Part shown: positions 7,975 through 55,598 of the stretch, piece after piece
Numbering within the stretch: the stretch's first letter is position 1
Layout: each line of letters starts with the position of its first letter
IMG/VR virus record: IMGVR_UViG_3300040801_004519
Span: 69,231-133,230 of that record
Reading direction: 5' to 3' (one strand)
From: a virus
Lineage: Duplodnaviria; Heunggongvirae; Uroviricota; Caudoviricetes
DNA length: 64,000 bases
Made by a program: the position numbers and the translations under genes
Notes under the pieces: generated by a model
What the model saw: the letters and a program-made list of their open reading frames with translations, nothing else
Databases searched by the model: none
What the model was told of the DNA's origin: nothing

Positions 7975-8286
7975 ATGAGTAACAAAATGAATTCAGATGA
8001 GTTTAAGGAAGTTCGAGATAAGGTTGCCAGATCATGCGTTTATGTAATTGACCGATGCCACGATTCTATTTTCTCCCGTTCAGAAGATTCCCCGTTAACT
8101 CCAACAGATATGAAGTCCCTCATGGTGACCATGAGGGAAGCCTGGTTCTTGTACTGCGAAAAGTACTCGGAACTTCTTGATGGTGATCTTGACAAACTGA
8201 TGGGCTTGCAAGATGACGACGACGATGACTTTGGAGATGACGGTTTCCAAGACTTTCTTGATGATGATGACGATGAATGGGAGTAA
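7975..8286 (+). CDS. small acidic protein (poly-Asp/Glu C-terminal tail)
   Basis: C-terminal [24 protein letters not shown]. Confidence 0.4.
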
Positions 8287-8291
8287 ATTTA

Positions 8292-26618: not shown

Positions 26619-27311
26619 TTGAGAATCTACAGACTCAGCAAGCAACCTGACCCGATCACCTACGTTCGCGTGGTGATGGCAAGGGTTAGCCACATATCGG
26701 AAGAAATGGCCAGCATTGGCAAAATTCGATGCTCTCAGCATGAACGTGATAGACTTGAAGCCATCCCAGATGTTCTGGGAGATGCTTGGCTTGAGATTCG
26801 ATCCTCTGTCTCCGATCTGAGTGGCCATGGCAGGTTTTCAAAAAAACACGCCCTGCAAGTTCGCGCAGCCCTTTCTGTCGGTATCAAGCTGACACAAGGG
26901 TGTTTTGACCTCATTCACAAGCTCCTCGAAGATGGTGTCCCTAAGGCATCTCGTCACTATTTGAAACGCACCTTACGCTGTGCTTTTGTCCGCTGTCAAC
27001 CTCATGAGGCCGAGCCAACAGATCAGTTTGTCCTGAACATGTTGGCCAATATTGCTTCTGGTCCATGTAAAAGCCTTGAGGGGCTTCTTGTAGGGGATGT
27101 CGATCCCCTATCTCATCTCAAGGTCAATGATGCCCTTGAACGTGGCCTTGTCAAGAGGATGGGGCAATTTTATGCGATGACAGGGAGCGGTTTGGAGACC
27201 CTGCTTGATGAGGCTGCCTACACTAGGGGATTGTCGCACTTGCTGTCAGACCAATCGGTTGAAACCAAAAATCTTTACTTCAAAGGACTCAAAGGAAACA
27301 ACAATGTCTAG
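26619..27311 (+). CDS. hypothetical protein
   Basis: 230-aa ORF. Confidence 0.35.
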   Translation: MRIYRLSKQPDPITYVRVVMARVSHISEEMASIGKIRCSQHERDRLEAIPDVLGDAWLEIRSSVSDLSGHGRFSKKHALQVRAALSVGIKLTQGCFDLIHKLLEDGVPKASRHYLKRTLRCAFVRCQPHEAEPTDQFVLNMLANIASGPCKSLEGLLVGDVDPLSHLKVNDALERGLVKRMGQFYAMTGSGLETLLDEAAYTRGLSHLLSDQSVETKNLYFKGLKGNNNV

Positions 27312-28173
27312 AAAATTTACAGGTGTAAAATGGCTTATCGAACGGTGTGCATTTGATGACCAAAATCCCCGAAAAATTGAAGAGTACCTTAAATCCATAG
27401 GTTTTCCTTGCTATTTTGCGAACTTCCATGGTTTTGGTAGCTACGAGCTACTTGGTCCAGCAAACGAGGAGCTAGGGAAAGAAGACTGTGTTGTTTGCTA
27501 CGCTACGATTGGCCTTGCACGCAAGTTACAGCGAGACAAAGCGTGGCATCCGTTGGCGTGGGTGGACTGGAAGATTTTTGAATGTACCCACTATTACCCC
27601 GTTTTCGCTCAGCATCTTATTGCTTCAAGATACATGATGATGCCTTTGGGAGAGATTCCCCGCCAAAAGGAATTTATATACGATACGCTCGGCATTGATG
27701 GTAAAGTATTTTTCCGACCTAATGACAATGAGAAGAGCTTTGCTGGCGAAGTTGTTCACTTCGATAGTTTTGACAAATGGTACTCATTAGCCAATATATA
27801 TGATCCAGGCAAGAGTTGCCTTTCCGTTGCTGCTCAGGTAGAAAGTATTCATTCTGAGTATCGAGTGATGGTCGCAGATCAAGAATTTTTAACTGGAAGT
27901 CGCTACCGTCTCAAAGGGGAGGTTCACTTAGATTCCGCCGTTCCTCAAGAGGTTTCTGATTTTGCCGTGATGCTTTCGAGAATTGCTGAAGAAAAATTCC
28001 CAGAATTGCCTTGTCTAATTTGCTTTGATATCGGAGTAACAGATAGAGGGCCAAAGTTGATTGAGATATCGTCTGCTAATACCAGCGGATTATACGAGAG
28101 CGACATGAAGGCCTTTGTCGATGTGGCGAACCGCATCGCAGAGAGAGAATGGCGAGACCTTTACGAGATTTAA
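27304..28173 (+). CDS. hypothetical protein
   Basis: start at ATG 27304 overlapping the previous stop (ATGTCTAG). Confidence 0.4.
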   Translation: MSRKFTGVKWLIERCAFDDQNPRKIEEYLKSIGFPCYFANFHGFGSYELLGPANEELGKEDCVVCYATIGLARKLQRDKAWHPLAWVDWKIFECTHYYPVFAQHLIASRYMMMPLGEIPRQKEFIYDTLGIDGKVFFRPNDNEKSFAGEVVHFDSFDKWYSLANIYDPGKSCLSVAAQVESIHSEYRVMVADQEFLTGSRYRLKGEVHLDSAVPQEVSDFAVMLSRIAEEKFPELPCLICFDIGVTDRGPKLIEISSANTSGLYESDMKAFVDVANRIAEREWRDLYEI

Positions 28174-28976: not shown

Positions 28977-29050
28977 GCTTCGGTAAGACTCAATGGTAGA
29001 GCTAGTTTTTCTAAAAAACTTGGTTGCAGGTTCGAATCCTGTCCGAGGCA
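28977..29050 (+). tRNA. tRNA with anticodon CUA (amber-suppressor type); D-arm irregular
   Basis: Acceptor stem GCTTCGG/CCGAGGC (7 bp, one G-U); perfect 5-bp anticodon stem AGTTT/AAACT with loop TTCTAAA (U33, anticodon CUA, A37); T-arm GCAGG-TTCGAAT-CCTGT with canonical GGTTCGAATCC; no encoded CCA; the D-arm folds only with a mismatch and extra nucleotides. Confidence 0.55.
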
Positions 29051-29148
29051 CTTGAACCTCGATTATTTTCAAAGGATAATCGAGGTTCAGTTTCGATTTG
29101 ATCTAAAGTTTTGCAAGCTGGTTAACCGATAATAATATTGTGACTTAG

Positions 29149-30602: not shown

Positions 30603-30922
30603 ATCGTGGAAAGTTAAGCTAATGCTGTTATCATACCCGATGTAAATAGAGTGGCTTGGGTCGGACCTACGCGCGATGTACAATATCGTGAGGAAGTTCG
30701 CGACTCCACTGCTTAATCTGGGAGATCGAAAGATCGTCTGTACCAGAGAGGGAGCAAGCCAAACAGGTCAGAGCCGGTGAGCAGGGCATTGAAGACCGGG
30801 TTGGTGCAGCACTTGATTTTCAAGTGCCATACCTAAGGGTATGAGTTAAATGTAGGTCACATCATAAGAAGCGATTCTATGATGTACAGAATTGCGGCTA
30901 TAGACCCAAACCACTCTATTTT

Positions 30923-32980
30923 ATGAACAACAATAATAACAAAGATGTCGAAGTCAATCAAGAAGCGGAAGAGCGGCGAAAAGAGGAGGCCGCAAAAAAC
31001 ATCGATTTCGATTTGCTAAATGGCGGCTCAGGATTCGAAGAAATCAAAGATTTTGGAGACCGAACCACTGTATTGAAAATCATCAAAGAACGAAGGCAAC
31101 GGCTTGCTTCGGCTTCCCAAAAGCTAAAAGAGAAGTTTGTTGGTCTTGATGATATAATTGACCAAATTATTCGGAACATCGAAGTCTGGTATGTAATGCC
31201 AGAAATTGTAGCTCGCCCGGTGATAGTCAATCTTTGGGGAATGACGGGTGTGGGTAAGACTGACTTAGTGCGAACTCTTGTTAGAGAGTTGAAGCTAGGT
31301 TCAACTTTTCATGAGATTCAGCTTTGTCACAATGGATCATCAAGTGGTGGTTCATCCGCATTGCGTGATGAGCTAGGTAAGTCCAATCTTGATCCTGAAC
31401 ATCCTGGAGTTCTTCTTCTTGACGAGATGCAAAGATTTCGTACCGTTGACAACAACGGTGATGAAATGCATGATTACAAGTTTCAGGACTTATGGGCACT
31501 CTTGAGCGATGGACGTTTTACTGGAGACACTGATAGAGACTCTCTAATCAGATTAATTCTGGAAGACATTTATTGGGATTATGGAGTTGTCAAATATAAG
31601 GACGAGGACGAAGACGACGAAGAAGAAGAGGAAAAGTCTAAGGTTGTATACAAGAACGGTTTTCGAAGAGGATATCAAAGCGCTCGTCTCCTAAAAAGAC
31701 AGCTTAGGCTCAAGGAACCGATTAATGAAATCATGACTTGGGACAACCAGCGTAAGCTTCAGGTTGCTACCGAAAAATTTGCAGATGATTCGACATACGA
31801 AGGACTTGACTATTCCAAGCTTCTAATCTTCATCTCAGGCAACTTGGACGAGGCGTACCAAATGGCTGGCGACTGTGAAGATGCAGATCGTGATGCTGAT
31901 GTTCTGCATGCATTCTCGAAACAGATCAATGTCATCGATATTAAAAGGGCATTAACAAAACGATTTAAGCCAGAACAAATAAGCAGATTCGGAAATACTC
32001 ATGTTATCTACCCTTCACTTGATCGCGGAAGCTATGAACACCTAATTCAGCGATCACTTGATCAGATTTCTTCCAAAATGAGTGAACGTCATGGTTTTAA
32101 TATTTCATTCGATGAAAGCGTAAATGTTTTTGTTTACAGGAATGGGGTTTACCCATCTCAGGGTGTTCGTCCGCTCTTCTCCACCATAGCTTCAAAGATT
32201 GAAAATTCAATCCCACAATTCGTCTTGAAAGGGCTGGAAGAGAATGTCTTGAACTTTTCCATCTTCCACAAGGATGAAAAACTGGTTGCAGTTACAGATT
32301 CGGGCACGACTTTGGACAGCCTCGTTTGCAACGGAGACCTTGACAAGATTAAGGAAGGCCGAGACGACGATTCTCGTTCGATGATTGCTGCCCACGAAGC
32401 TGGCCATGCTGTTCTTTATGCAGTGTACTATGGTTATTCGCCAACCGAAGTAACTGCAAGCCTCTCTGGCTGGAATGGAGGTTATGTTGCCCCTCACAAT
32501 TTTAACCAAGAAACGCCTGAAGTTTTGAAGAACAAGATAAGGGTATATCTTGGCGGACGAGCTTCTGAACAAATCTTTTTTGGTGACGGGGTAGTAACAA
32601 CTGGTGGATGGCATGACATAAGCAGCGCGACATCAATCGCATCCTCGATGGTACGTCGTTACGGAATGGATCACACTACTGCAACCGTTCGGTCTGAAAC
32701 TTGGAACAATGCTTCAGAATCTGTGAACTTAAACAGCGAAAAGGTCAACGAGAGGATTGAAGAGATTGTAAACTCTGCCCAAGGAGAAGCCATTGATCAT
32801 CTTAAGGAACACATTCCTCTTCTAAAAGAAGTCGCTAAAAAGTTGTACCATGATGGCCGTATAGAACCGAAGACATTTGCTGACATTTGCAATAATCATG
32901 GTTTGAGTGTTGTTGTTTCCGAGAATGAAAGTATCTCGGTACAAAAATATTTAAAGAAGTTTGAAGAGTTTGTAGGATAA
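30923..32980 (+). CDS. soluble AAA ATPase fused to FtsH-type (M41) zinc metalloprotease domain
   Basis: Walker A GMTGVGKTDLVRTL, Walker B LLLDEMQ; C-terminal AAHEAGHAV (HExxH), LGGRASEQIFFG and TTGGWHDISSATSIASSMVRRYGMD parallel FtsH HEAGHA / GGRAAE / TTGA..D..AT.IA..MV..YGM; no N-terminal transmembrane segment. Confidence 0.6.
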   Translation: MNNNNNKDVEVNQEAEERRKEEAAKNIDFDLLNGGSGFEEIKDFGDRTTVLKIIKERRQRLASASQKLKEKFVGLDDIIDQIIRNIEVWYVMPEIVARPVIVNLWGMTGVGKTDLVRTLVRELKLGSTFHEIQLCHNGSSSGGSSALRDELGKSNLDPEHPGVLLLDEMQRFRTVDNNGDEMHDYKFQDLWALLSDGRFTGDTDRDSLIRLILEDIYWDYGVVKYKDEDEDDEEEEEKSKVVYKNGFRRGYQSARLLKRQLRLKEPINEIMTWDNQRKLQVATEKFADDSTYEGLDYSKLLIFISGNLDEAYQMAGDCEDADRDADVLHAFSKQINVIDIKRALTKRFKPEQISRFGNTHVIYPSLDRGSYEHLIQRSLDQISSKMSERHGFNISFDESVNVFVYRNGVYPSQGVRPLFSTIASKIENSIPQFVLKGLEENVLNFSIFHKDEKLVAVTDSGTTLDSLVCNGDLDKIKEGRDDDSRSMIAAHEAGHAVLYAVYYGYSPTEVTASLSGWNGGYVAPHNFNQETPEVLKNKIRVYLGGRASEQIFFGDGVVTTGGWHDISSATSIASSMVRRYGMDHTTATVRSETWNNASESVNLNSEKVNERIEEIVNSAQGEAIDHLKEHIPLLKEVAKKLYHDGRIEPKTFADICNNHGLSVVVSENESISVQKYLKKFEEFVG

Positions 32981-32984
32981 CGAA

Positions 32985-33392
32985 ATGGGTTGTACATTCA
33001 TTGATCTAGACGGAACCATCTTTAAGCATGGAACTAACAGCCTTCTTCCAGGTGCCCAAGAACTTCTTGAGTCCATTGAAAATGAAGGCCATGAAATCAT
33101 ATTTACTACACGTCGTGGAGATCGGGAGTTCAAAGATCACCCAGTGTATAATGCAGATTCTGCACGATTAGCAGTACGAGGCCTCAGAGTAGACTATAAA
33201 GAATTGATACTTGATGTAAGCAGTCCCCGTGTCGTTATAAATGATCAGGGTGCAGTTGGCATTAACCATCTTTATAACAACGATTGGTCTACTGAAGATA
33301 TTGAAGCTGCCCTTTATGCACTTGATCATGGCAAGCCAAAAAATAAAAAGGAAGACAATGTTAACTCTATTCAGCCAGAAGAAAGTGATTAA
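32985..33392 (+). CDS. small HAD-like phosphatase
   Basis: MGCTFIDLDGTIF (DxDGT motif I). Confidence 0.45.
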   Translation: MGCTFIDLDGTIFKHGTNSLLPGAQELLESIENEGHEIIFTTRRGDREFKDHPVYNADSARLAVRGLRVDYKELILDVSSPRVVINDQGAVGINHLYNNDWSTEDIEAALYALDHGKPKNKKEDNVNSIQPEESD

Positions 33393-33400
33393 GTATTATA

Positions 33401-33985
33401 ATGTTTAGTAAAATGCAGTCTACCATGGCCGCTGGCCTTGTGCTTCTTGTACCAGTTGTTGTAACTTTGTATACCGTTATCCTTGCATTTAAGATACTTG
33501 ATGGATGGACAGAATGGGTTGGAATCACAACCCCAGGAGTAGGCATTGTTCTTCTGATCCTTTCAATATTCGGGGCTGGTCTTTTTGCAAAGAATTTCAT
33601 TGTGTCTCGATTAGTTCATTTTGGTGGAGGGGTACTTCACAGAATACCAGCCGTTGGATGGGTCTATTCTACTGTCAAAGAGGCTTGCGAAGCTCTATTT
33701 AGTGCAGATGGCAAAAAACTTGGTGAGCCTGTATATGTTCGAATTCCAAATGGTTGGGTTTTAGGATTTAGGACAGGGGAAAGCCCTCGAAGTCTTCCAG
33801 AGAACAGTGATGTTCCAAATCCGATGGGTGCTGAATTTGAGACTGTACTTGTCATGTGGGCATTTAGTGCTGGATCAGGTGTTACTGTCGAAGTTAATAA
33901 GCGTGACATAGTATCTGCAAACATGTCTACTGATCAAGCCCTAAAACATACCCTGACGGCTGGGGTTGTGGGTAATTCGAAATAG
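33401..33985 (+). CDS. membrane protein (DUF502-like)
   Basis: two N-terminal TM helices followed by IPAVGWVYSTVKE resembling the DUF502 conserved block. Confidence 0.35.
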   Translation: MFSKMQSTMAAGLVLLVPVVVTLYTVILAFKILDGWTEWVGITTPGVGIVLLILSIFGAGLFAKNFIVSRLVHFGGGVLHRIPAVGWVYSTVKEACEALFSADGKKLGEPVYVRIPNGWVLGFRTGESPRSLPENSDVPNPMGAEFETVLVMWAFSAGSGVTVEVNKRDIVSANMSTDQALKHTLTAGVVGNSK

Positions 33986-34063
33986 GAAGTTGCTAGTAGA
34001 GGAAACTTCTCGATGTAATTGAATACTGATTGTACAGTCTATTACGTTTACTAGGAGGCAAAC

Positions 34064-34240
34064 ATGGCTGAAATTCTACTTGGCATTCTCATCGGTGTAG
34101 GACTTATCTTCGCATTTATTTACAGGGATAAGGTCAAAGTCTGGGTGCAACAGGCAATTGCGAAGCTTAAGACGCTTCGTAGCGACAAAACTAAAAATGA
34201 TGACAACTCGTATTCAGATCATCAGAACTATAAGTACTAA
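34064..34240 (+). CDS. small single-pass membrane protein (58 aa), not in ORF track
   Basis: TAGGAGG Shine-Dalgarno 7 nt upstream of ATG 34064; MAEILLGILIGVGLIFAFIY TM helix; followed by a terminator. Confidence 0.4.
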   Translation: MAEILLGILIGVGLIFAFIYRDKVKVWVQQAIAKLKTLRSDKTKNDDNSYSDHQNYKY

Positions 34241-34263
34241 GTAACTTATTACGTTTATAATGA

Positions 34264-34292
34264 AGGGGCGATTGCTAAAATCGCCCCTTTTT
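34264..34292 (+). terminator. rho-independent terminator
   Basis: GGGGCGATT-GCTAA-AATCGCCCC hairpin followed by TTTTT. Confidence 0.65.
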
Positions 34293-34345
34293 GCGTAGGA
34301 GGTCACATATTCATATGCGAAGTAGTATATTTGTGGTGACCTCAT

Positions 34346-35002
34346 ATGTACGAGTTGACTAATACAAGAATTCGATCAACAACTCTTAACGTTGAATACG
34401 CCCGTTCTGGAATACCTGTTATAGAACTTTCATATTCTGATTGGTTAAAGTCTCTTCAAGAGCTTGATCGTATGAAGTTTTCGTCTTCAAAAGATTTCAT
34501 GGGAATGTATTACAACAACCCAAATGCCACTAAATTGGGTTTTCCTCGCCGCTTCATCGTGATTAATAAGTCGATGCCCAATTACGAGAAACTTATGGTT
34601 TTCTATCATGAGGTGGGGCATCATTCTTGTGTGAAATGCCGCTGCAAATGTGCGTGGAAGGGCTTCCAACATCGAAAAACAGAATTGCACGCTGAGCTTT
34701 CATGCATATATATAGCAAAATCAAGGGGCTATTCCGAGATGGTACTGGAACTGGTAAAAGAGACTGTTGAAGCCTTAGATTATCACTTCGAATATAATTT
34801 TTGGAATGCTTCTAGGATGCTAAAACATCCGGTTTATCTTGAAGCAGTAAAGTCGGTAGAATACGATTTTAACTTGTGGTTGAAATCTAAATCAAACAGA
34901 AGACTTAAGAGGCTCTACGATCAATGTATGAATGACAGTTCAATAGGTACTTGTCGTTGGAAACCATCAAACTACTTGGTTAAATTCGCGTCTAAAGTAT
35001 AA
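34346..35002 (+). CDS. hypothetical protein with HExxH motif
   Basis: FYHEVGHHSC (HExxH) plus a Cys cluster; 218 aa. Confidence 0.35.
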   Translation: MYELTNTRIRSTTLNVEYARSGIPVIELSYSDWLKSLQELDRMKFSSSKDFMGMYYNNPNATKLGFPRRFIVINKSMPNYEKLMVFYHEVGHHSCVKCRCKCAWKGFQHRKTELHAELSCIYIAKSRGYSEMVLELVKETVEALDYHFEYNFWNASRMLKHPVYLEAVKSVEYDFNLWLKSKSNRRLKRLYDQCMNDSSIGTCRWKPSNYLVKFASKV

Positions 35003-35029
35003 CGTGGATTGCTGCAATTAATTCTATGA

Positions 35030-35473
35030 ATGTCCGATACATCATATATGTTGGAACGCAAAATCAAGATGGCTTCCTCAGACAACTCCCCCACCAATTT
35101 TGAAGAGCTTAAGCAACTTGCTGCTAAAGTTGTGGTAGAGATGTCCAGATCGGAAGATGACTCGATAAATTGGGTTGAAGGTTTGTTCTCCCACCCCGAT
35201 GACCTTGACTTTGTGAAAACTGGATTTTTTGCAATGCAGGATACGTTTCGGAATCTTCTAGGCGCAAAGTACGAATTGCTCTCTCTTGAGGGCAAAATAA
35301 AAGCCGGAGAGGCCGCTGCTGCAATGATGCTTCACTACCTTCAGAGCATCAGGCAAAAGTTTGATGAGGGTAAGTTCGATTTTGAATCAGAATCAGAAAT
35401 GAGTTTTGATGATCCAACTTTTCCTGATTTTTTGGACCCCGATGATCCAGATAATTGGGATTGGGAGGAGTAG
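35030..35473 (+). CDS. acidic protein with D/E/W-rich C-terminus
   Basis: C-terminal FDDPTFPDFLDPDDPDNWDWEE. Confidence 0.35.
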   Translation: MSDTSYMLERKIKMASSDNSPTNFEELKQLAAKVVVEMSRSEDDSINWVEGLFSHPDDLDFVKTGFFAMQDTFRNLLGAKYELLSLEGKIKAGEAAAAMMLHYLQSIRQKFDEGKFDFESESEMSFDDPTFPDFLDPDDPDNWDWEE

Positions 35474-35518
35474 CTCAGTGAATTTCTGGGAGTATACTGG
35501 CGTCCTCGGTGGCAAGCG

Positions 35519-36721
35519 TTGCCACCCGTTCCCATTCAACAGAAGAAAGAAAAGACATTGACGAAGTTTTTTAAAGGTCTTGGTTTCCCCGGAAGCTTGA
35601 TCGTCATCGCCATCCTGCTTATCGGATTCCTCACCGTCGCCTATCTGGCGGTAACCCCCTCTCGGATTAAAGGTAACCAAATTGGAGTCCTTGAGACTTG
35701 GTGGGGCGGTGTCCACGAAGAGCCAAGGGGGCCAGGGATGCACTTCCTATTTCCAGGAATTGCCATGGACCTCAAGTCTTACTCCCTTCAGCCAAGAGTC
35801 TTTGTGATGAACGACATTCCCGGTGATGTCGAAGAATCTAAAGGTCGAGAACTGGATTCATATGAGGTTCAGTCCCGAGAGGGGCAGACGATGAACATCA
35901 GCTTCAGCGTTCGTTGGAAAATCAATCCCGACCAGATCATTCAGTTGCACAAAGAATTCCGCAGTGATGGCATCACGGAGAATGATCTGATTATTGAGGA
36001 AAGATTGATCCGCCCGCAGTCCATGCGGATCATTAAAGATGCTGCAACTAGACGCGAGGCCATCGACGCATACTCTGGAGAAGGCCTTGTCTCACTTCAA
36101 GCAGAAATTCAAAGTGAGCTTTCTTCAAAGGAAGGCGAACTCTACAACAGTGGCATCATTGTTGAGAACTTTGTGATTGAGGGAATCAAGCTTGACCCAG
36201 AGTATATCGGTGAAATCCGCGCTCGCCAAGTTGCAACGCAGAAAGAGCTTCGAGCAAAAGAGGAAGAGCGTGCTGCTCTTGCTGAGGCCCAGAAGGCTAA
36301 TGCCGAAGCACAAGCTGATTACGAGAGGGCCGTTGTTGAAGCCGAGCGAGACAAAGCAGTTGGTATTTTGAGGGCAGAACAAGACCAGCAGAAACAAGTA
36401 TTGGCTGCTGAGGCATTGAAGGAAAAGCTTGTCCTCGAAGCTACTGGTCAAAAAGAGGCAGACCTTCTTAAGGCACAGGGTATTCTGGCTCTTGGTCAAG
36501 CAGAAGCAGAGGCTAAGAAATTACAACTTGAAGCATTCGCAGTTGAAGGAGCAGATGCTTTTGTTCAAGTTGAAGTGGCAAAGGCTATGGCAGAAGCATT
36601 CAAGAATATCGATGGGTATCTGCCCGAAGATATGAAGATCAACTTGCTTAGCCAAAGCTTTATGGATTCTATCAAGTCGATTGTCAACCCACAGGCATCA
36701 AACACAGAAGAGAGTAAGTGA
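35519..36721 (+). CDS. SPFH/band-7 family membrane protein (HflK/HflC/flotillin-like)
   Basis: N-terminal TM (LIVIAILLIGFLTVAYLAV), band-7-like core, then a long Ala/Glu/Lys/Gln-rich coiled-coil tail typical of HflK/C and flotillins. Confidence 0.6.
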   Translation: MPPVPIQQKKEKTLTKFFKGLGFPGSLIVIAILLIGFLTVAYLAVTPSRIKGNQIGVLETWWGGVHEEPRGPGMHFLFPGIAMDLKSYSLQPRVFVMNDIPGDVEESKGRELDSYEVQSREGQTMNISFSVRWKINPDQIIQLHKEFRSDGITENDLIIEERLIRPQSMRIIKDAATRREAIDAYSGEGLVSLQAEIQSELSSKEGELYNSGIIVENFVIEGIKLDPEYIGEIRARQVATQKELRAKEEERAALAEAQKANAEAQADYERAVVEAERDKAVGILRAEQDQQKQVLAAEALKEKLVLEATGQKEADLLKAQGILALGQAEAEAKKLQLEAFAVEGADAFVQVEVAKAMAEAFKNIDGYLPEDMKINLLSQSFMDSIKSIVNPQASNTEESK

Positions 36722-36722
36722 T

Positions 36723-36932
36723 ATGCGTGTAAAAACAGTTACATTTGCTCAACTGCGTAATACTGGTCGATACGAAAATCAGCGAGCCGAGGCGACAATC
36801 GAGGTCAATGAAGGCGAAGATGTTGAAGAAGCATACAAGCTTGCTAAAAAGGTTGTCAGGAAAACGCTGGGTCTCGGGCCAACTCAAGAAGAGTTAGACA
36901 AGGCCAGGGAGGTACTTGAATCTGCTGAATAG
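36723..36932 (+). CDS. hypothetical small protein
   Basis: ATG 2 nt after the SPFH stop. Confidence 0.3.
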   Translation: MRVKTVTFAQLRNTGRYENQRAEATIEVNEGEDVEEAYKLAKKVVRKTLGLGPTQEELDKAREVLESAE

Positions 36933-37061
36933 CTTATAATGTTCCGATAAAGGTATAGAGGGCCAGGAAATAACAAAATGGCCCACGCCAAGGATGGCAT
37001 CCAATTTAGGGCCAGAGAAATCTGGTTCTAAATTCTTAAGAAACCTTTAAAGAGAGGCAAT

Positions 37062-37223
37062 ATGCTTTCGTTCATCTGTATACTTTCACTAGTCCTTAAT
37101 CTCGCCTTAGTAGTTTTACTTATATTGATTGTAAGACCCGTCAAGGGACTTCTTGAGCAACTCACCGAACTGTTCGAGAGAGTGCTCATCGCAACACGAA
37201 CCCCACTTCCACCAAAGGAATAA
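37062..37223 (+). CDS. small hydrophobic peptide (53 aa), not in ORF track
   Basis: AAGAGAGG upstream of ATG 37062; LSLVLNLALVVLLILIV TM segment; stop overlaps the next start (TAACATG). Confidence 0.3.
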   Translation: MLSFICILSLVLNLALVVLLILIVRPVKGLLEQLTELFERVLIATRTPLPPKE

Positions 37224-37224
37224 C

Positions 37225-37851
37225 ATGAAATTTCTTCGCTTCCTGTTCCCGTTCTTTTTCTCTAAAAAGGGCAGCAGCAAGGACCAATGTAAAGACGCAG
37301 ACCTCAATAACAAACACAATGAGGTAAAAAAGCAGTATGTTGCCCCCCAAAGTAAGCCCAAGCCAAGTAAATACGAGGGCACTTTTGACAATAAGAGTAA
37401 TCGCTATGTCAAGAGAAAAAATGGCAGGGTATCAGAAGTATGGTATGACGATGAGTGGACAGCCATTGATCTAATTACTGACGTTATGCTTCTTGAAGCT
37501 CTTGGAGTAATTGACGTTTTTCCTGATAACCAAGAAGACACTGGCTACCATGAAGAACATTCCGATATTCTAGACGGAAACGAGCAGGTGCCAGAGGCTC
37601 CCGAAGTCGTTCAGGAAGAAGAGAAGGCACCAGAAGTACAAGCTGAAGTTTCAGGTGACAAGATGGAAACCTACTTCGAAGCCCCTAAAGAGAATTATCA
37701 AGAGCCACCCCAGGCCCCTGTTTCGGAGCCAGAGCCGGTGCGAACCACCACAACCTATACCGACAGTGGTTACTCTTCGTCTAGCGGAGGCGGATATTCT
37801 TCTGGAGGAGGCGGTTATGACAGTGGTGACTCTGGTGGAGGAGACGATTAA
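37225..37851 (+). CDS. secreted/membrane-anchored protein with Gly/Ser/Tyr-rich low-complexity C-terminus
   Basis: N-terminal hydrophobic signal-like segment; C-terminal SGYSSSSGGGYSSGGGGYDSGDSGGGDD. Confidence 0.4.
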   Translation: MKFLRFLFPFFFSKKGSSKDQCKDADLNNKHNEVKKQYVAPQSKPKPSKYEGTFDNKSNRYVKRKNGRVSEVWYDDEWTAIDLITDVMLLEALGVIDVFPDNQEDTGYHEEHSDILDGNEQVPEAPEVVQEEEKAPEVQAEVSGDKMETYFEAPKENYQEPPQAPVSEPEPVRTTTTYTDSGYSSSSGGGYSSGGGGYDSGDSGGGDD

Positions 37852-37920
37852 TTCTCACTAGGAAAAATTAGAAGAACATCTTCAAAGGAGGACAAGGGCC
37901 AGTGTTCGAATTAGAGAGTT

Positions 37921-38817
37921 ATGAACTCATCTAATTCAAGCACTGGCCCTTCTTCCGCTTCTTCGTCTCAGCCACTTAATTCTGATAGCTCAGAGTCAAG
38001 TAATTTTCCTGAAGAGATACAAGAGCTAGTAGAAATAGCTCAAGAAACACCGTCAAACATCGAGGATGTCAACAATAGTGAAAGTAGTTGCGATGATCCT
38101 GAAGACGTAATTGCTCCCAAAGTGGACTGTGCAGCGCCCAAGCGAGGCCTACTTCTTAGAACTCCTGACATCAGGGACTTCAATTATCGTCCAATACCTA
38201 GGAGAGCCGCATCACATATTCGAAAGAAATTCTGGGCAACAAACTATGCCTTTGATCAAGGTGAAACATCTGCTTGCGTTGGATATTCAGGAGCAGCATT
38301 TTTAGATTCTGCACCAGTAAGGAATAGGATGGAAGATGCTCCCTTTAAGCCTTTTGACCTTTATGTTCTTGCAAAAAGGTTTGATGAATGGCCAGGTGAA
38401 GATTATGAGGGAACCTCGATACGAGGATTGTGTAAGGCGTTGAAGGCTGCTGGCATAATTGCCAAGTACGAGTGGGCTTTTGATACTCGAAGTATTACCA
38501 GATGGCTGCTTACAGATGGTCCAGTTATTGTTGGCACCGTCTGGAGTGATGAAATGTTTGAGACTGACAAAAAGGGGTTCATTCACCCAGGTGTTGGTGC
38601 CTCAAATCCCCATTCTGGTGGTCATGCCTATCTTCTTAAGGGTGTTGATCTTGATAAAAAATGCCCAGATGGAACTAAGGGTGCGTATAAAATACTAAAT
38701 TCTTGGGGTAAGTCTTGGGGTACCAATGGAACAGCATGGATAGCTATTTCAGAATTCGAAGGTCTTCTTCGACTATCTGGAGAGGCAGTACGCATGAGAG
38801 AAAACAAAGTGTTTTAA
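37921..38817 (+). CDS. papain-like cysteine peptidase (C1 family-like)
   Basis: QGETSACVGYSGAAFL (Gln oxyanion and catalytic Cys context), HAYLLKGV (His), NSWGKSWGTNGTAWI (Asn-Ser-Trp-Gly block). Confidence 0.5.
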   Translation: MNSSNSSTGPSSASSSQPLNSDSSESSNFPEEIQELVEIAQETPSNIEDVNNSESSCDDPEDVIAPKVDCAAPKRGLLLRTPDIRDFNYRPIPRRAASHIRKKFWATNYAFDQGETSACVGYSGAAFLDSAPVRNRMEDAPFKPFDLYVLAKRFDEWPGEDYEGTSIRGLCKALKAAGIIAKYEWAFDTRSITRWLLTDGPVIVGTVWSDEMFETDKKGFIHPGVGASNPHSGGHAYLLKGVDLDKKCPDGTKGAYKILNSWGKSWGTNGTAWIAISEFEGLLRLSGEAVRMRENKVF

Positions 38818-38828
38818 CCTATTTCGAT

Positions 38829-39347
38829 ATGCACATTGCATTCTTTAGAGCTAGAAAAGGTAAGCTTGTAGATTGGTTAATCGATCTTTTTACAGGCCTG
38901 AAGGGCTTTAGCCATATGGAGCTTGTGTTTTCTGATGGACAATGTTTCTCTGCTCAAAAAGGGGACAAGGGAACTAGGTATAAAAATGTTGACTTTGATG
39001 CAGCTTCCTGGATCATTATTCCTCTAACCGTAACAGACGAACAAGAAGTTGTTATTCGATCTTTTTGTGATTCTGTATTGGGAAAAGAATACGATATCTG
39101 GGGTGCTTTAGGAGTAATCCTTCCATTCCGAAATCGAAAGGGAAAATGGTTTTGTAGCGAAGTTGTTGTTACCGCATTACAGGAAATAGGGATGTATGAG
39201 GGTATTGATCCAGCAAAAGTTGACCCCAACTGGTTGTGGGAAAAAGCAACTTCTGGTGTTTATCTAAACTCCAGCAGAATACTGCATGAAGATTGCCACT
39301 TTGGAAGTCTGAAGTCACAGGATATTAATGATATCTCTCCAGAGTGA
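38829..39347 (+). CDS. hypothetical protein (possible permuted papain-fold/NlpC-P60-like hydrolase)
   Basis: start at in-frame ATG 38829; His...Cys order (HMELVF ... WFCSEVV) suggests a permuted thiol-hydrolase; weak. Confidence 0.3.
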   Translation: MHIAFFRARKGKLVDWLIDLFTGLKGFSHMELVFSDGQCFSAQKGDKGTRYKNVDFDAASWIIIPLTVTDEQEVVIRSFCDSVLGKEYDIWGALGVILPFRNRKGKWFCSEVVVTALQEIGMYEGIDPAKVDPNWLWEKATSGVYLNSSRILHEDCHFGSLKSQDINDISPE

Positions 39348-49528: not shown

Positions 49529-49879
49529 TTATTTCTTAGCTCTAGAGCATCCACAGCCTTTCTTCTTTTTTGTGCTTGCAGAACCAAGCCTGACACCAGA
49601 CTGATTTGCCTGTTTTGTTCCGATTGGCTTGGACGCTTTTGGCGATGTACCGCCCTCAATAAAGCTTTTCCCAAACGGACACTCAAAGTCTACCTCGTTG
49701 TTGGGTAACACATAGAGTGAAGATTGAGACTTCCTCCACTCTCTACCTCCAACCCGATCTCTACATGTGTTGCAATGTGCTTCACTTCTACAGTGAAAGC
49801 TTCTAATGAATTCAGGTTTCTGTTTTGGCTCGCTCATAGAGTTATCTTTCTCATTTATTCTCTTCTTCTCCTTCAGCAA
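49529..49879 (-). CDS. small basic Cys-rich protein
   Basis: 116 aa; CRSEAHCNTC ... FECPFG ... GCGC; overlaps the 3' end of the giant gene by 29 nt. Confidence 0.35.
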   Translation of the reverse strand: MLKEKKRINEKDNSMSEPKQKPEFIRSFHCRSEAHCNTCRDRVGGREWRKSQSSLYVLPNNEVDFECPFGKSFIEGGTSPKASKPIGTKQANQSGVRLGSASTKKKKGCGCSRAKK

Positions 49880-52800
49880 GGAGAGCTTCTATATCATCGG
49901 CATTCCGCATCATCTTTGCCAAAAGTTTAGGTGATGACCCGTTCCATATGCCACTGTTGACCCTGCCGTTATTATCAACATAGAAGAACCTGACTTTGCC
50001 ATCTCCAATTATTGTGGCACTCGGATTTGAGGGGCTAATAGACATCCTAAAATCCATGATAAAGTCTTCTGGATACGGCATTCTTATCGAGCCATCTTTT
50101 GGAAGGCTTTCTATGTCTCCAGCTATGAAGATAGGAGTGCTTCCCTTCTCGCTGTTCAAGTATTCAGCCATTGTTGGAGAGCCGACGACCCCGCTAGGAA
50201 TGTATTTCATAAACAAGAGTGAATCATCTGATACGTAGAATACAAATGTTTCATCTGTCTTGTCGTCATAGACGACATCTGCTAATCCACTTCCCTTGAT
50301 ACCTATTCCAGTTTTCCATGTGAAGCCACCATCCATGCTATAGAAGTGCTCGATAGTTGCAGAGGTTCTGCTTAACGGCTCCTCTTCGTCGCCTTTTGCC
50401 CGCCCGCAGCGACCATCAAGCTCTTCATGTTCAATTTCATGCTTTTCTTCATCGAAGATATCAGGCTGACTCTCGGATATTGTTCCAATAGCATCCCCAT
50501 TACACATGCTACAGTTCATCCTAAAGATACCATTGGGAGGACAAACGTCATGGCATCCATCAGCCTTCTTGAAAAGAGTCCATTTGTGTTCTCGACTAGC
50601 AAGAATCCAGTAGTCTCTTTCCTTGTATAAAGTCCACTTTTCTTTATCCTTTGCTTTCCACACTGCATAACCAGCATATTTATCGCGATCTTCGAACTCT
50701 GGATTTCCGTCTCTATCTTCACCCACCTTAACTGGAACCTGCCCTGGTTCAAGCCCTTCAAGCTCAAAAGCTCCTGAAAATGTAGAGCATGGACATCTTT
50801 CATCAATGATGCCAGACACATTCAAAGTTATATCTTTAATGTCACAATATTCCGTTAACTCGTCGTCTCTATCTCTTATGGGCTGACCCTTGGGCGTAAA
50901 TTCATCGATGTTCTCGCCTGTATACCGCAGAGGGTCAAAATTAGGATGAGAAGCTCCCCCGCTACCTCTTGAGCCTCGCTTCCAAACTCTAACAATACCT
51001 TTCTGATCAACATAAGAATGTATTGCTTGACCCGATTCAAAACCAAGGGATTCTCCATTATAACCAGTTCCATCTGGGTTCATTCCTATATATCTAGGAA
51101 CTAGTGTTGGCTCTTTATACGATGATCTTTCTCTAGTAGCGAGAACTTCATCATGCTCTATTTCTCCAGCAATTACATATGAAGAAGTCATTCTCAGATC
51201 AATACCATCTTGGCTGAACTGTTCAAGATGATAATCATTTGGTTCATCAGGTTTGAAGTACTGAGGTCTTTCATACTTTACAAATGCATCGAGTGATATG
51301 AGCTTATTTGTGTCAATTCGTTTCACGCATGTTGATACAAAATTTCCTCTGTCTCCTGATTCCTCTGAAGAAAGCTCTCCTCTGATGTTTACACCATGAG
51401 TTCTTTTGAAGTACAATATAATACTGTTACTTTTGTAATCAGGAATAGCTAACGGCGACGTAAGGTTTTCCCAATTTACTGTTCGTACGATAGATTTATG
51501 GTCTTCCCATGTTTTCCCTAAATCGCGGGAGACCAAAACGCTTATGTCTGAATTCTTTTGATAACATACATCTGAAACACTGGACTCTTCGAGCATTGTG
51601 TTTTCAAAATACTTTGGTTTATTGCATGACCTAAAACCCTCAGTTGGCAGCCAACAATGCTGTGTATCTATTTGAGCACTATCCCAGTGTGATCCATAAA
51701 ATAGCACATATTCTGTACCATCCAAGTCCGTCATAATAACCTCTACGGTCCACCTTCCCTCTTCCTCGATTACCGAAACTTCAACAGGAAGCAGAAGCAT
51801 TACTGGTTTTTCACAGTTATAATCACAAGCAACAGCACTTACCCTTATCGCGGTTTGTCCTGTCCACTTGGTAGAGTCGTCACAGTCTCTGATAACGCAA
51901 ATAGGACCAAGAGTTCTTGTATCAAAAACAAGCTTGCCCTGTGGATCATCCAACTCTTCGTCATCTTCTTCGCTCTTTACCTTATCTTCAGTTTGACATC
52001 CGTGACAGTATCGAGCATACTTGCCTTCTGTAATGATGTTCGAAAGGTCAATGGTGAAGTGATCATGTCTTCTAGTCCCGACATCTTTGCAATTGAAGTT
52101 GTATAGTTCTCTGTCACCACAACCTATGCTGCTGCTGCTTTCAGAACTAAAGCTGCTGCAAGACTGCGAGCTTTGGTCACTAAATCCTCCACTGGATTCA
52201 TCCGAAGTCAGACCGTCGCTAAGGCCACCACTTGTTTCTGGGTCAGTGCTGAAGCCGCCGCTGCTGTCGTCGCCGTCGCCAGTGCCTCCACCGCCACCGC
52301 CGCCTCCTCCACCACCGCCGCCACCGCCGCCACCGCCCCCTCCACCCTTGTTGTGGACAGCAATGCCTCCTGCGAAGAAAGTATTGTCTCCGTCAACGGT
52401 AAGATTAAACACCGTAGCCTCCTCAGCTTCCTCAACAGACAAGATCATGGTTGGAATGAGGTCTGCATCAAACCGGTATACTATTGTTTCTGGTACAAGG
52501 TACTTAGCCTTGGTATATCCGTGATCTGTTAAAAACGGGTGATCAGGAGAAACTTGAAGAGTCTCGTTGCTTGTTTGTATTTTTATTGTAGAAGATGAAA
52601 GTTTTGAAAATGTCTTAGAAACCTTTCCCTTACTTACCTTCCCTTCCTCATTGTGGGTGTAGACTTCATCGCCAACCCGGATTTTTTCAATATCAACATC
52701 TCCATTGAGGGTTGAGACTTTTGTTTTAGCGACGAAACAACCTCCACCTCCACCCCCACCGCCACCACCGCCGCCTCCCCCTCCACCTTTATTGTGGACA

Positions 52801-55598
52801 GCAACTTTGTTTACGAAATAGGTATTTGGCTCTTCTACCGTGAGATTGTAAACCGTATGGCACTTTCCATATCTTCTACTTCCGACAACGAAATCTTCAA
52901 CAAGCTCTCCGTTTTCATAAGTCCATATACTATCTCCAGGGATCAGCCTTTTTGCTGACTTAAATTCACCATCTCCAATGTAAAATGGGTGGTGTGCCGT
53001 CGTTTTGATTGTTGTTGATCCAGTTTCAATTACATAATGACCCATTGACAAGTGTTCGATAACTTCCTTAACTTGGGAGTTTATCATTGAACCGTCGTTA
53101 TTAAATGAAATTACAGAGTTTCTTCTATCTATCTGGCTAATTGGCCATTGTCTTCCATCCTCCAGTGTTACTAACGAATCTCCCGTAAAACAGCCTCCAT
53201 CTTTATTGTGGACCGCAGTTCCGTTTGCAATGAATGTTTTGTTTGGGCCAACAGTTAAGTTGTAAACGACGACCCACTCTTCAGGAAACTCTTCTTCGAT
53301 CTGATCAATCTTTGCTGGAACAAGTTTTTCGTCATGATACCGGAAGATTGTATCCCCAGCCTCAAGAAGCTCTGCTGCACGGTATTTCCCGCTTCCCATG
53401 TAGAATGGATGCTCTCCAGTCGTTGTTATTTTTTCACCATCAACGTGGAGTATAACCAACGAATCAACTGCCGTTGAATATGTATTGGTTACTTCGCCTT
53501 CGCAGATATTGCCATCAGGATCAAACGAAACAACCTTGCTTCCAGCAGCAAGGGACTCGATAGGTGCGTATTTTCCGTTTGCAAGTAAGACTGGGGTGCC
53601 AGAGATGAAGCAGCCCGATGAGTCTCCACTATCAGAACCAGACGGACAAACCACCTTACATGGGTCACGATCAGGGCAATCCCGTTCCTCATCTGACTGG
53701 CTTGAATTACTTGATATCAGACCATCATCATCATCGTCGTCAGGAATAGTTGACAGGCTACTATCACTGCTGCTACTAGACCAGCATTCGTCATCGGCAA
53801 TCCTGTACTCTTCATCAGCGTAAAAAACAAGAAGTCTTCCCTGAGCGTCAAACGTCACAGAATAATCCCTTGCTCCAAAAGCATACTTGATGTAGTCTTT
53901 TGGCTCCATGACGATAGCTTTAGCAGTTGCTATTTTCGGTGGTTTTACCACCTTGCCATCTTTATTTATCCATTCTCCCCCAATCTCAATTCTGAAGGGT
54001 GAAACTCGATTCACTTCGATTTTTAGTTCACCATCATTCTTTCCCTTGTTAACTGGGACATTATCTAAGACCCACTCGCTCGCCTCGTTGTTCTTTGTCC
54101 ACGAAGCTCTTGCATCGCAAATATCCTTTTCCCCACGGAATTTAAAGTGAAGCACGGCCTTTTCAGCCCCAAGCTCGTTGTCATCAGTTGTTGTGAACTT
54201 AAGAAATCTAATGAACTTGTTCTGTAGATCATCTCCACCTAAGCTCTGTATTCCATCTTCTTCTGAAATTTCCAGAGTTATCTCGTCATATATCTCATCA
54301 GGGTCTGCAAGGCCATGTTCTATCATCGCGCCATCAACCATGATCGTTTTTCCATTTTCGTATCCTGGTTGACTGGCGATTCTTTGAATACCTGAAACCG
54401 TCAAACTTCGGTCTTCTATTGAGTCTAGTGCGTATGGCAAGTGCCCGGCATGTGGGATATCCACCATAGAATTTAACGATGCAGCAAGTCTTGTCTCCTC
54501 AAGATGGTTAAAGAAAACGAGATTTGAGTTCCCTCTTCTTCTCCAAGATTTCGCGAACTCCAGAGGAAGAGATGGCTCATCGCCATCAGTGAAGGAAAAG
54601 GTGTTAATGCGGAATTGGTCAGTCACCGCGTTTGCCGCTGATCCTACAATTCTCCTACACGACGAGCAGCCAGAACTTACTCTCCCCAACCCTTCTACAA
54701 GCCTTGGTGGTTCCTCACTTGATTCCGATCCGATTTCTTCTGCGCGAAGATCAGGGTTAACGTATCCACGCATATCGTGAAAGTCTCTATTGCATGCTTT
54801 CCACGTAATGCCGAGTCTTCTGAATCTAGCAGCCGCGCCTCGTTCTTCAGCAGTTTCTCCTGAATAATTTGTTCCTGAACCAAAGCAATTGTTCTCAATT
54901 GGTAGGTTCATCGCAAATATTGTATGAACAAGCTTACCTTTGCCTGCGAACTTGTCACATTGATCCTTATCAGTAAACTCTACAGCGACTCGAAGAAACG
55001 CCTTGCTGAACACTCTGCTGTTCTGCTTTTCTCCTGGTGCTCCCGTAGGTTCTATTCTGTAATCGTAGTTTGGTCCACATGTGGCCCTTACTGCACCACC
55101 GTGAATAATTATCTCGATGTAAGCAGCACTGGGTTTTCGAGGTGGCTCTCCACTTTTGCTCTTCATGCACATGCATGTGTCGCCTTCATAAAAGCACCCC
55201 TCGTCAAGCTCTGGAAGATATGCTTCTCTAGTGTAACCACCTTCTACCTTGATTGATGCCGCCCAACGGCAAAAGGGTACCCTTACATCGTCTCCGTCGC
55301 CTTGCAAGTCAGTGCATGACATAAACTTGTTTCCACCATCAGTCCTTCGAAGCGTGTATTTCCCTCCAATATCAACCTTGTCAATATTTACCACGCCCGA
55401 TCCGCCTGATCCACAAGACGGGACACATAAATCTACACCACGCCCGACTGCTTTTTCCGCGTACACTTCAAAAAAGGATGGAACACAGTCTAGACAGTGA
55501 AAACACGGAGTATTATCATGACAATCACCACATGGCTGGTCTAAGTCTCTTAGCCAGCTTTCACAATCTGAAGGTCTAGATGGAATTCGTTTCGCCAC
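49851..55598 (-). CDS. giant (1915 aa) Cys-rich protein with four tandem Hint (intein/Hedgehog-like) domains separated by poly-Gly linkers
   Basis: Single uninterrupted ORF. Four repeats each start G-C-F-x-x-G/K-T (CFISGTPVLL, CFTGDSLVTL, CFVAKTKVST, and a fourth), carry an intein block-B-like T-x-x-H (TTTGEHPFY, TTAHHPFY, VSPDHPFL) and end in block-G-like AVHNK (TAVHNKDGG, VAVHNKGGGG, IAVHNKGGGG). The +1 residue after HN is Lys/Gly, not Cys/Ser/Thr. Poly-Gly runs of 16 and 21 residues, a poly-Asp run, and N- and C-terminal Cys-rich regions. Confidence 0.7.
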   Translation of the reverse strand: MAKRIPSRPSDCESWLRDLDQPCGDCHDNTPCFHCLDCVPSFFEVYAEKAVGRGVDLCVPSCGSGGSGVVNIDKVDIGGKYTLRRTDGGNKFMSCTDLQGDGDDVRVPFCRWAASIKVEGGYTREAYLPELDEGCFYEGDTCMCMKSKSGEPPRKPSAAYIEIIIHGGAVRATCGPNYDYRIEPTGAPGEKQNSRVFSKAFLRVAVEFTDKDQCDKFAGKGKLVHTIFAMNLPIENNCFGSGTNYSGETAEERGAAARFRRLGITWKACNRDFHDMRGYVNPDLRAEEIGSESSEEPPRLVEGLGRVSSGCSSCRRIVGSAANAVTDQFRINTFSFTDGDEPSLPLEFAKSWRRRGNSNLVFFNHLEETRLAASLNSMVDIPHAGHLPYALDSIEDRSLTVSGIQRIASQPGYENGKTIMVDGAMIEHGLADPDEIYDEITLEISEEDGIQSLGGDDLQNKFIRFLKFTTTDDNELGAEKAVLHFKFRGEKDICDARASWTKNNEASEWVLDNVPVNKGKNDGELKIEVNRVSPFRIEIGGEWINKDGKVVKPPKIATAKAIVMEPKDYIKYAFGARDYSVTFDAQGRLLVFYADEEYRIADDECWSSSSSDSSLSTIPDDDDDDGLISSNSSQSDEERDCPDRDPCKVVCPSGSDSGDSSGCFISGTPVLLANGKYAPIESLAAGSKVVSFDPDGNICEGEVTNTYSTAVDSLVILHVDGEKITTTGEHPFYMGSGKYRAAELLEAGDTIFRYHDEKLVPAKIDQIEEEFPEEWVVVYNLTVGPNKTFIANGTAVHNKDGGCFTGDSLVTLEDGRQWPISQIDRRNSVISFNNDGSMINSQVKEVIEHLSMGHYVIETGSTTIKTTAHHPFYIGDGEFKSAKRLIPGDSIWTYENGELVEDFVVGSRRYGKCHTVYNLTVEEPNTYFVNKVAVHNKGGGGGGGGGGGGGGGGCFVAKTKVSTLNGDVDIEKIRVGDEVYTHNEEGKVSKGKVSKTFSKLSSSTIKIQTSNETLQVSPDHPFLTDHGYTKAKYLVPETIVYRFDADLIPTMILSVEEAEEATVFNLTVDGDNTFFAGGIAVHNKGGGGGGGGGGGGGGGGGGGGGTGDGDDSSGGFSTDPETSGGLSDGLTSDESSGGFSDQSSQSCSSFSSESSSSIGCGDRELYNFNCKDVGTRRHDHFTIDLSNIITEGKYARYCHGCQTEDKVKSEEDDEELDDPQGKLVFDTRTLGPICVIRDCDDSTKWTGQTAIRVSAVACDYNCEKPVMLLLPVEVSVIEEEGRWTVEVIMTDLDGTEYVLFYGSHWDSAQIDTQHCWLPTEGFRSCNKPKYFENTMLEESSVSDVCYQKNSDISVLVSRDLGKTWEDHKSIVRTVNWENLTSPLAIPDYKSNSIILYFKRTHGVNIRGELSSEESGDRGNFVSTCVKRIDTNKLISLDAFVKYERPQYFKPDEPNDYHLEQFSQDGIDLRMTSSYVIAGEIEHDEVLATRERSSYKEPTLVPRYIGMNPDGTGYNGESLGFESGQAIHSYVDQKGIVRVWKRGSRGSGGASHPNFDPLRYTGENIDEFTPKGQPIRDRDDELTEYCDIKDITLNVSGIIDERCPCSTFSGAFELEGLEPGQVPVKVGEDRDGNPEFEDRDKYAGYAVWKAKDKEKWTLYKERDYWILASREHKWTLFKKADGCHDVCPPNGIFRMNCSMCNGDAIGTISESQPDIFDEEKHEIEHEELDGRCGRAKGDEEEPLSRTSATIEHFYSMDGGFTWKTGIGIKGSGLADVVYDDKTDETFVFYVSDDSLLFMKYIPSGVVGSPTMAEYLNSEKGSTPIFIAGDIESLPKDGSIRMPYPEDFIMDFRMSISPSNPSATIIGDGKVRFFYVDNNGRVNSGIWNGSSPKLLAKMMRNADDIEALLAEGEEENK
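52285..52347 (-). repeat. GGN-codon simple repeat encoding a 21-residue poly-Gly linker
   Basis: CCNCC repeats on the + strand; coding low complexity inside the giant gene. Confidence 0.8.
52741..52788 (-). repeat. GGN-codon simple repeat encoding a 16-residue poly-Gly linker
   Basis: as above. Confidence 0.8.

Follow-up and report, generated by a model that had tools for sequence, protein, structure and literature searches.

The window analysed here is a stretch of 64,000 nucleotides (nt) from IMG/VR virus record IMGVR_UViG_3300040801_004519 (positions 69,231 to 133,230; Caudoviricetes), and the gene under study is the open reading frame (ORF) at 30923..32980 on the plus strand, which encodes a soluble, chimeric AAA+ metalloprotease of 685 residues that joins an Hsp100/Clp D2-type ATPase to an FtsH-type M41 peptidase. 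The gene is preceded by a strongly structured, ORF-free leader of 320 nt (30603..30922, +) and is followed on the same strand, within one long co-directional block, by a gene for an SPFH/Band_7 membrane protein of 400 residues (35519..36721, +). An earlier reading made from the letters of the DNA (hereafter, the sequence-only reading) had described the first gene as an FtsH-type AAA-M41 protease without a membrane anchor and the second as its candidate HflK/C-like regulator, in a virus-like setting; the peptidase, the missing anchor and the setting are borne out, and the type of ATPase and the pairing are not.

In the encoded protein an N-terminal part (residues 1-95) stands ahead of a single AAA+ module. 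The Walker A motif or P-loop of this module, GMTGVGKT (residues 106-113; 31238..31261, +), aligns to the Hsp100 D2 sequence 'GPTGVGKTEL', and the Walker B motif, LLLDEM, lies at residues 163-168 (31409..31426, +). The spacing between the two is thus normal, and the long insertion that had been placed between them is found further along, at residues ~198-295 (31514..31807, +), past the post-Walker-B helix and ahead of the sensor-1 strand, in alignment columns of variable length. This insertion is specific to the family and consists of helical segments and a disordered acidic/Lys-rich linker; in an AlphaFold2 model it is predicted to form helices at residues 205-228 and 251-292, and the predicted local distance difference test score (pLDDT) falls below 50 at residues 221-244. 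Sensor-1 Asn307 (in LLIFISGN; 31841..31843, +) is followed by an Hsp100-type motif, 'F-K-P-E-Q-I-x-R-F-G-N' (31961..31996, +), which aligns to 'FtPEflnRfdg' of ClpE and contains the candidate arginine finger R355, then by the D2-small (lid) subdomain (32018..32332, +; PF10431, 1.5e-6, 28.5 bits versus a cut-off of 21.9), within which the sensor-2 motif QGVRP (32159-32173, +) includes R416 and aligns to 'GARPL' of ClpE and Hsp104. The M41 zinc-metallopeptidase domain occupies residues 482-652 (32366..32878, +; Pfam Peptidase_M41, 5.8e-24), with the HEAGH motif at 32393-32407 (+) and the third zinc ligand, D565, at 32615-32617 (+). All four M41 motifs quoted by the sequence-only reading (HEAGHA, GGRASE, TTGGWHD and RRYGMD) are contained in the ORF. 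A hydropathy scan found no transmembrane (TM) segment in the protein (maximum Kyte-Doolittle 19-residue mean, 1.14), and no N-terminal TM segment was found in any of 141 family members.

The two halves of the protein match different families. Its best PDB sequence matches are FtsH protease domains, aligned over residues ~484-663 (2di4, 1.4e-11), and residues ~334-457 match the D2 ring of ClpB, ClpC and ClpA; the AAA region of FtsH scores -1.6 bits against the protein. The FtsH equivalog model of NCBIfam (TIGR01241) reaches 77.4 bits versus a cut-off of 600 and aligns at profile positions 413-594 only, its peptidase part, and NCBIfam also matches the C-terminal D2 regions of ClpA, ClpB and ClpV. 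An ATPase-only profile (A3) was built from 16 diverse members and run against the PDB: the top ~37 matches were all Hsp100 D2 modules (ClpE at 7.5e-16, then Hsp104, ClpC, ClpB and ClpA), HslU and ClpX ranked after them, and FtsH was absent from the 60 matches listed. In HMMER alignments to ClpE and Hsp104, the match extends over the P-loop part of D2 as well as its sensor-2/lid part. The hallmarks of Hsp100 D2 are present (GxTGVGKT(D/E)L, DE, 'LLSDG', the sensor-1 N, 'FKPEQIxRFGN' and 'QGVRP'), and the D2-small domain is also precomputed in many relatives.

The predicted structure agrees with this division. The confident AlphaFold2 model (pLDDT 81.4, predicted template modelling score 0.72) retrieved FtsH chains and ClpB NBD2 in Foldseek, and its M41 fold superposes on the FtsH protease domain at 1.9 Å. 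Structure scores for the ATPase half were 18.2 with ClpA, 17.2 with ClpB NBD2, 17.1 with Skd3, 15.8 with HslU and 15.7 with ClpX, and with isolated classic-clade AAA modules 10.5 (i-AAA), 10.8 (Vps4) and 10.7 (spastin). As judged by profile and model, the ATPase half is of the Hsp100/Clp D2 type (HCLR clade) and not the classic-clade AAA of FtsH. Since its ATPase is Clp-D2-type, and in view of a score of 77 bits versus a cut-off of 600, the protein is not an FtsH orthologue; the FtsH-type AAA of the sequence-only reading gives way to matches with ClpB_D2-small and with the D2 rings of ClpA, ClpB, ClpC, ClpE and Hsp104. The protein is a soluble chimera of one Clp/Hsp100 D2-type AAA+ module and an M41 peptidase.

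This architecture is shared by a large family. A homology search gave 2689 matches among 8000 candidates scored, and the best 120 of them were all full length at 38-48% identity. With the ATPase alone as query, 798 clusters at 50% identity were recovered at E <= 1e-30, nearly all of 610-720 residues, and the fusion is therefore the norm. Members occur on 140 stretches in IMG/VR and on at least 591 stretches from GTDB species representatives; cultured carriers include Polaromonas, Chryseobacterium indologenes, C. fistulae, Ottowia thiooxydans, Variovorax paradoxus, Pseudarcicella hirudinis and Neolewinella lacunae, and many metagenome-assembled genomes (MAGs) of Chamaesiphon and Saprospiraceae carry one as well. 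Among 50,697 deposited phage records there was no full-length member. One contig with the protease gene is entered as a giant-virus MAG (IMGVR_UViG_GVMAG-S-1041352-47_000001) and may belong to a true nucleocytovirus or to a mis-binned huge phage. The family is currently labelled 'cell division protease FtsH' by JGI and 'AAA family ATPase' by NCBI.

Across 141 viral and bacterial members, the Walker A residues G109, G111, K112 and T113, the Walker B residues D167 and E168, sensor-1 N307, E351 and R355 of the arginine-finger motif, sensor-2 R416, the HExxH motif, E549 and D565 are all invariant. Such invariance of the catalytic residues in both halves speaks for activity of the ATPase and of the peptidase alike, and both active sites are under purifying selection. 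Mean identity was 35% among viral copies and 49% among the sampled bacterial copies, and the viral copies branch basally in a rough neighbour-joining tree; the bacterial sample is skewed to the best matches, and the tree is indicative only.

Bacterial copies lie amid housekeeping genes (fabH, fabD, plsX, infC, guaB, rsmI and an RNase J-like gene) in a synteny that is lineage-specific, and at the loci examined none was in a prophage or a defence island. In Chamaesiphon (L094-L115) the protease gene sits inside a plsX-fabH-[gene]-fabD cluster, and in Saprospirales (L119/L120) it adjoins fabH. An ORF of ~164 residues overlaps the start of the protease gene by 2 nt in Burkholderiales (L099/L101/L112/L146); it could represent a partner found in that lineage only, or a spurious ORF such as GC-rich genomes yield. 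Among the viral loci no conserved operon partner was found, and no neighbour family occurs in more than 19 of 78 loci; the recurrent neighbours are homing endonucleases, a helicase, Thg1, R2K ATP-grasp proteins and ligases. An apparent neighbour cluster of 66 loci was rejected as antisense ORFs overlapping the protease gene itself. The protease is a stand-alone gene and is conserved as such.

Three well-known groups of proteins share parts of this design. FtsH (M41; TIGR01241; including the mitochondrial i-AAA and m-AAA proteases) has in common with the window protein the M41 domain, the HEXXH motif and the third acidic ligand. In contrast to FtsH, however, the window protein has no N-terminal TM segment or periplasmic region, and its ATPase is Hsp100-D2/HCLR-type, whereas that of FtsH is a classic-clade AAA with the second region of homology. 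The Hsp100/Clp D2 modules (ClpB, ClpA, ClpC, ClpE, Hsp104 and Skd3) share Walker A and B, sensor-1, the 'PE..xR' arginine finger, the sensor-2 'G-A/V-R-P' motif and the lid; the window protein differs from them in having a single AAA+ ring without N-domain, D1 or M-domain, in lacking the GYVG loop, in carrying ~100 helical and acidic residues before sensor-1, and in being covalently fused to its peptidase in place of docking to ClpP. Lon (LonA/LonB) has the same general layout, in that one soluble chain carries an HCLR-clade AAA+ module and, after it, the peptidase domain, but the S16 Ser-Lys peptidase domain of Lon is absent from the window protein.

FtsH-like proteins with no role assigned have been reported from the Pseudomonas jumbo phages MIJ3 (gp107) and PA5oct (gp342) (PMC6892783, PMC7318152). 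These are, like the source of the window, large phages with an M41 protease, and the MIJ3 gene also adjoins a DNA ligase. The MIJ3/PA5oct protein and the ftsH product of Microcystis phage MaAM05 match Escherichia coli FtsH over nearly its whole length, starting at residue ~5 (6.9e-134 and 7.1e-191). Both also hit p97/Cdc48 with their classic AAA modules, and against the family profile only their M41 part aligns. They are canonical FtsH, provide a positive control for assigning the clade and show the window protein to be of another kind than the published phage FtsH.

We consider it likely that the product of ORF 30923-32980 is an ATP-dependent zinc metalloprotease of Clp-D2-type AAA+::M41 architecture that is single-chain, cytosolic and autonomous. 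If it resembles FtsH and Lon in assembly, a hexamer would form in which a ring of ATPase domains sits on a ring of peptidase domains, and ATP hydrolysis would drive the unfolding of substrates and their processive feeding into the M41 chamber. The result would be phage-controlled proteolysis in the cytosol during early or middle infection, directed perhaps at turnover of host or defence proteins, or perhaps at quality control for the very extensive proteome of the phage, alongside the phage DnaJ. Several points weigh against this interpretation. The canonical GYVG pore-1 loop of Hsp100 is absent; some aromatic residue occurs in the loop at its position in 131 of 141 members, but the window copy (residues 137-150, HNGSSSGGSSALRD; 31331-31372) has none, which leaves it uncertain that substrates are threaded in the usual way. 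The activity of all family members is, moreover, predicted from sequence, and substrates and a role in infection are read purely from context.

The same loop bears on a second interpretation, in which the protein works mostly as an unfoldase, disaggregase or remodelling ATPase of the Clp kind, and the M41 domain acts chiefly as an oligomerisation platform or as a site-specific processing protease rather than as a chamber for processive degradation. The missing GYVG loop and the lack of an aromatic residue in the window copy would fit such a protein, as would the family-specific insertion of ~100 residues near the position of the pre-sensor-1 element and the full-length DnaJ encoded in the same window. 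HExxH, E549 and D565 are nevertheless invariant in 141/141 members, which argues for retained catalysis, and the M41 fold superposes on the FtsH protease domain at the 1.9 Å given above; inactive homologues of the FtsHi type typically lose the HExxH or ligand residues. We therefore regard this interpretation as unlikely, although it survives better than those considered below, and prefer that of an ATP-dependent protease.

The SPFH/Band_7 protein (Band_7, 5.9e-19; phrog_200, 9.7e-36) is encoded 2.5 kilobases (kb) past the stop codon of the protease gene. Its general description holds, with a single N-terminal TM segment (residues 27-45), a Band_7 domain and an A/E/K/Q-rich coiled-coil tail; its placement in the HflK/C family does not, as no HflK or HflC model of NCBIfam matches it at E <= 1e-3, and a profile of the protein run against the PDB retrieved QmcA (4e-10) and prohibitins (~1e-4) and no HflK/C, though FtsH-HflKC entries are in the PDB. 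What it shares with HflK/HflC, QmcA and prohibitins is the generic SPFH layout of N-terminal TM segment, Band_7 domain and coiled coil, with a tail resembling QmcA; unlike HflK/HflC, which form a K/C pair, it comes from one lone gene, and it is unlinked to the protease in the other genomes examined. Relatives at 48-58% identity are found on bacterial chromosomes of Beggiatoa, Thiotrichaceae, Planctomycetota and Termitidicoccus, and an identical copy lies on a 133-kb contig.

Linkage of the two genes was scored over 10 kb on each side of each gene and by contig names. No SPFH gene was found near the protease within this distance in any of 78 viral loci (tblastn at 1e-5, phmmer at 1e-2), and the three nearest relatives for which Pfam contexts were precomputed likewise had none (0/3); in bacteria one of 80 loci gave a weak match. 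The closest relative (L001) is partly syntenic and has a Ro60 gene ~7.6 kb downstream of the protease, as in the window, with no Band_7 gene between the two. Conversely, only 12 IMG/VR loci contain a relative of the window SPFH protein, the protease is missing from the 10 kb on either side of each of them, and the two lists have no contig name in common. Relatives thus keep the protease without an SPFH gene nearby, which the sequence-only reading had named beforehand as the outcome that would count against a link. Because SPFH is absent beside the protease elsewhere and the protease is absent at SPFH loci, the adjacency is lineage-specific, with no comparative support for a functional link.

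It is accordingly very unlikely that the two genes form an FtsH-HflK/C-like pair in which an SPFH scaffold regulates or localises the protease and thereby acts on host membrane-protein quality control or on switches of the sigma-32/CII type. The genes do share a strand and a distance of 2.5 kb, in a co-directional block that also contains a DUF502 gene, a small TM protein and further peptidase-like genes, and SPFH proteins often partner proteases (HflKC with FtsH, prohibitin with m-AAA, stomatin with NfeD). The HflKC cage, however, engages FtsH through its transmembrane and periplasmic parts, which the window protease lacks; four unrelated genes lie in between; the SPFH protein matches no HflK/HflC model; and the positive-inside rule suggests that its SPFH domain faces away from the cytosol. 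These points stand besides the missing linkage in viral, syntenic and nearest relatives and at the 12 viral SPFH loci. The SPFH gene is best explained as one for an independently acquired membrane protein, and probably not for a regulator of the protease.

That the protease is instead an effector or anti-defence protease of an anti-phage or counter-defence conflict system is most improbable: the N-terminal ATPase region gives weak PADLOC matches (DolB at 5.5e-8, and PDC-M37B) and the gene lies in a host-takeover-like region of huge phages beside homing endonucleases, but those matches cover the generic Clp-like P-loop region only with no partner gene matched, bacterial copies stand in stable lineage-specific synteny with fab/pls, infC and guaB, and no partner gene is conserved.

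The leader ahead of the protease gene and the hairpin within it had both been noted before and are present. Inverted-repeat arms of 19 nt (30644-30662 and 30903-30921), 95% complementary and with 240 nt between them, enclose the hairpin GCACTTGATTTTCAAGTGC (30810-30828). The minimum free energy of the leader on the plus strand is -116.6 kcal/mol versus -86.7 +/- 5.5 for shuffled sequences (z = -5.44), and the opposite strand gives z = -6.17; as folding controls, a coding segment gave z = -0.31 and two intergenic segments gave z = -2.07 and -3.69. The hairpin is followed by no T-tract and is therefore not an intrinsic terminator. No Rfam family matched the leader at gathering score or at E <= 1, and no homologue was found in the loci examined. 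A repeated miniature inverted-repeat transposable element (MITE) was also considered and rejected, as only the two arms occur in the window and there is no second copy; a single IMG/VR 19-mer match (L177) proved to be an unrelated 22-mer inside an ORF. The leader could be a novel structured 5' untranslated region or non-coding RNA, or a MITE-like insertion.

Four genes lie between the protease and SPFH genes. A small HAD-like hydrolase (32985..33392, +; Hydrolase_3, 1.9e-4, a weak match) is followed by a DUF502 membrane protein (33401..33985, +; PF04367, 3.4e-19; hydrophobic segments at residues 5-69), a TM peptide of 58 residues (34064-34240) and a soluble, weakly metalloprotease-like protein with an HEVGHH motif (34346..35002, +; phrog_87, 2e-4; no Pfam match). 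Beyond the SPFH gene, ORF 36723-36932 was considered as ribosomal protein S21 and rejected, its Pfam match being sub-threshold and no bS21 match being found in the PDB; further along the block lie genes for a papain-like C1 peptidase (37921-38817; phrog_16701, 2e-36) and a phrog_1128 protein with the motif 'KWFCSEVV' (38829-39347). The block from 33401 to 39347 downstream of the protease is thus rich in membrane proteins and peptidase-like genes, and none of its genes recurs beside the protease in other loci. A Ro60/TROVE plus vWA orthologue (40052-41767; phrog_850, 3.7e-82) lies beyond this block and is kept downstream of the protease in the closest relative; Ro60/TROVE genes also lie near SPFH genes in L081 and L083. 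No Y-RNA-like partner for Ro60 was found by Rfam anywhere in the window.

Elsewhere the window encodes a bacterial-type clamp-like protein, RNA and DNA ligases, a protein with PARP catalytic and WGR domains (43953-45251; 3.7e-30), PcfJ, a full-length DnaJ, a glycosyltransferase, an R2K-clade ATP-grasp protein (27205-28173), papain-like peptidases, a Hint-rich ORF of 1915 residues and a tRNA with anticodon CTA. PARP genes lie near the protease in 4 other huge-phage loci, and R2K ATP-grasp genes in 11. The DnaJ (8277-9350) is of type I, with J, zinc-finger and C-terminal domains (DnaJ_bact, 1.9e-83, under the equivalog cut-off), so the phage carries its own Hsp40 co-chaperone besides the protease. 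The Hint-rich ORF (49851-55598, -) contains at least three Hint/intein-type stretches (PT-HINT, 5.6e-30; Hint; Hint_2). The tRNA (28977-29051; Rfam tRNA, 33.2 bits) would be an amber suppressor by its anticodon, is labelled 'Pyl' by ARAGORN and is directly followed by a strong 18-bp hairpin (29052-29090). Recoding of TAG, considered on account of this tRNA, gave no signal in a crude read-through test, and TAG terminates 12 of 65 long ORFs of the window.

Many window genes strongly match PHROG families, relatives of the protease occur on IMG/VR contigs reaching 548 kb, and a 422-kb relative contig encodes a tRNA synthetase, ligases, a phage lysozyme, a 5'-3' exonuclease and an R2K ATP-grasp protein; for these reasons the window is best read as part of a huge phage, with the caveat that its 64 kb contain no virion structural gene. 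The window sequence was also found in JGI sample 3300040789. In the phage, the region of the protease gene holds genes for replication and nucleic-acid repair and for host takeover.

ClpXP, ClpAP/CP, HslUV, Lon and FtsH are commonly presented as the complete set of machines for ATP-dependent proteolysis in bacteria. The family described here could quite possibly, though we advance this tentatively, be a previously unrecognised class of AAA+ protease, a soluble single-chain Clp-D2::M41 enzyme that is chromosomal in bacteria of several phyla, serves huge phages as a degradation machine of their own and in the present lineage may stand under a novel structured leader RNA. An incomplete literature search found no description of a Clp-D2/M41 chimera, which is absence of evidence only. 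The architecture indicates that a Clp/Hsp100 D2 motor and an FtsH-type zinc peptidase can be recombined without a membrane anchor, and the chimera is no one-off, with ~800 clusters at 50% identity, hundreds of bacterial species, culturable ones among them, and many huge phages. The result corrects routine annotation, as the labels 'FtsH' and 'AAA family ATPase' both hide the chimeric architecture, and it removes the attractive but unsupported account of a viral FtsH-HflK/C module. The family is directly testable in Chryseobacterium, Variovorax or Polaromonas, and it bears on the ways in which large phages maintain proteostasis or break down the proteins of their hosts.

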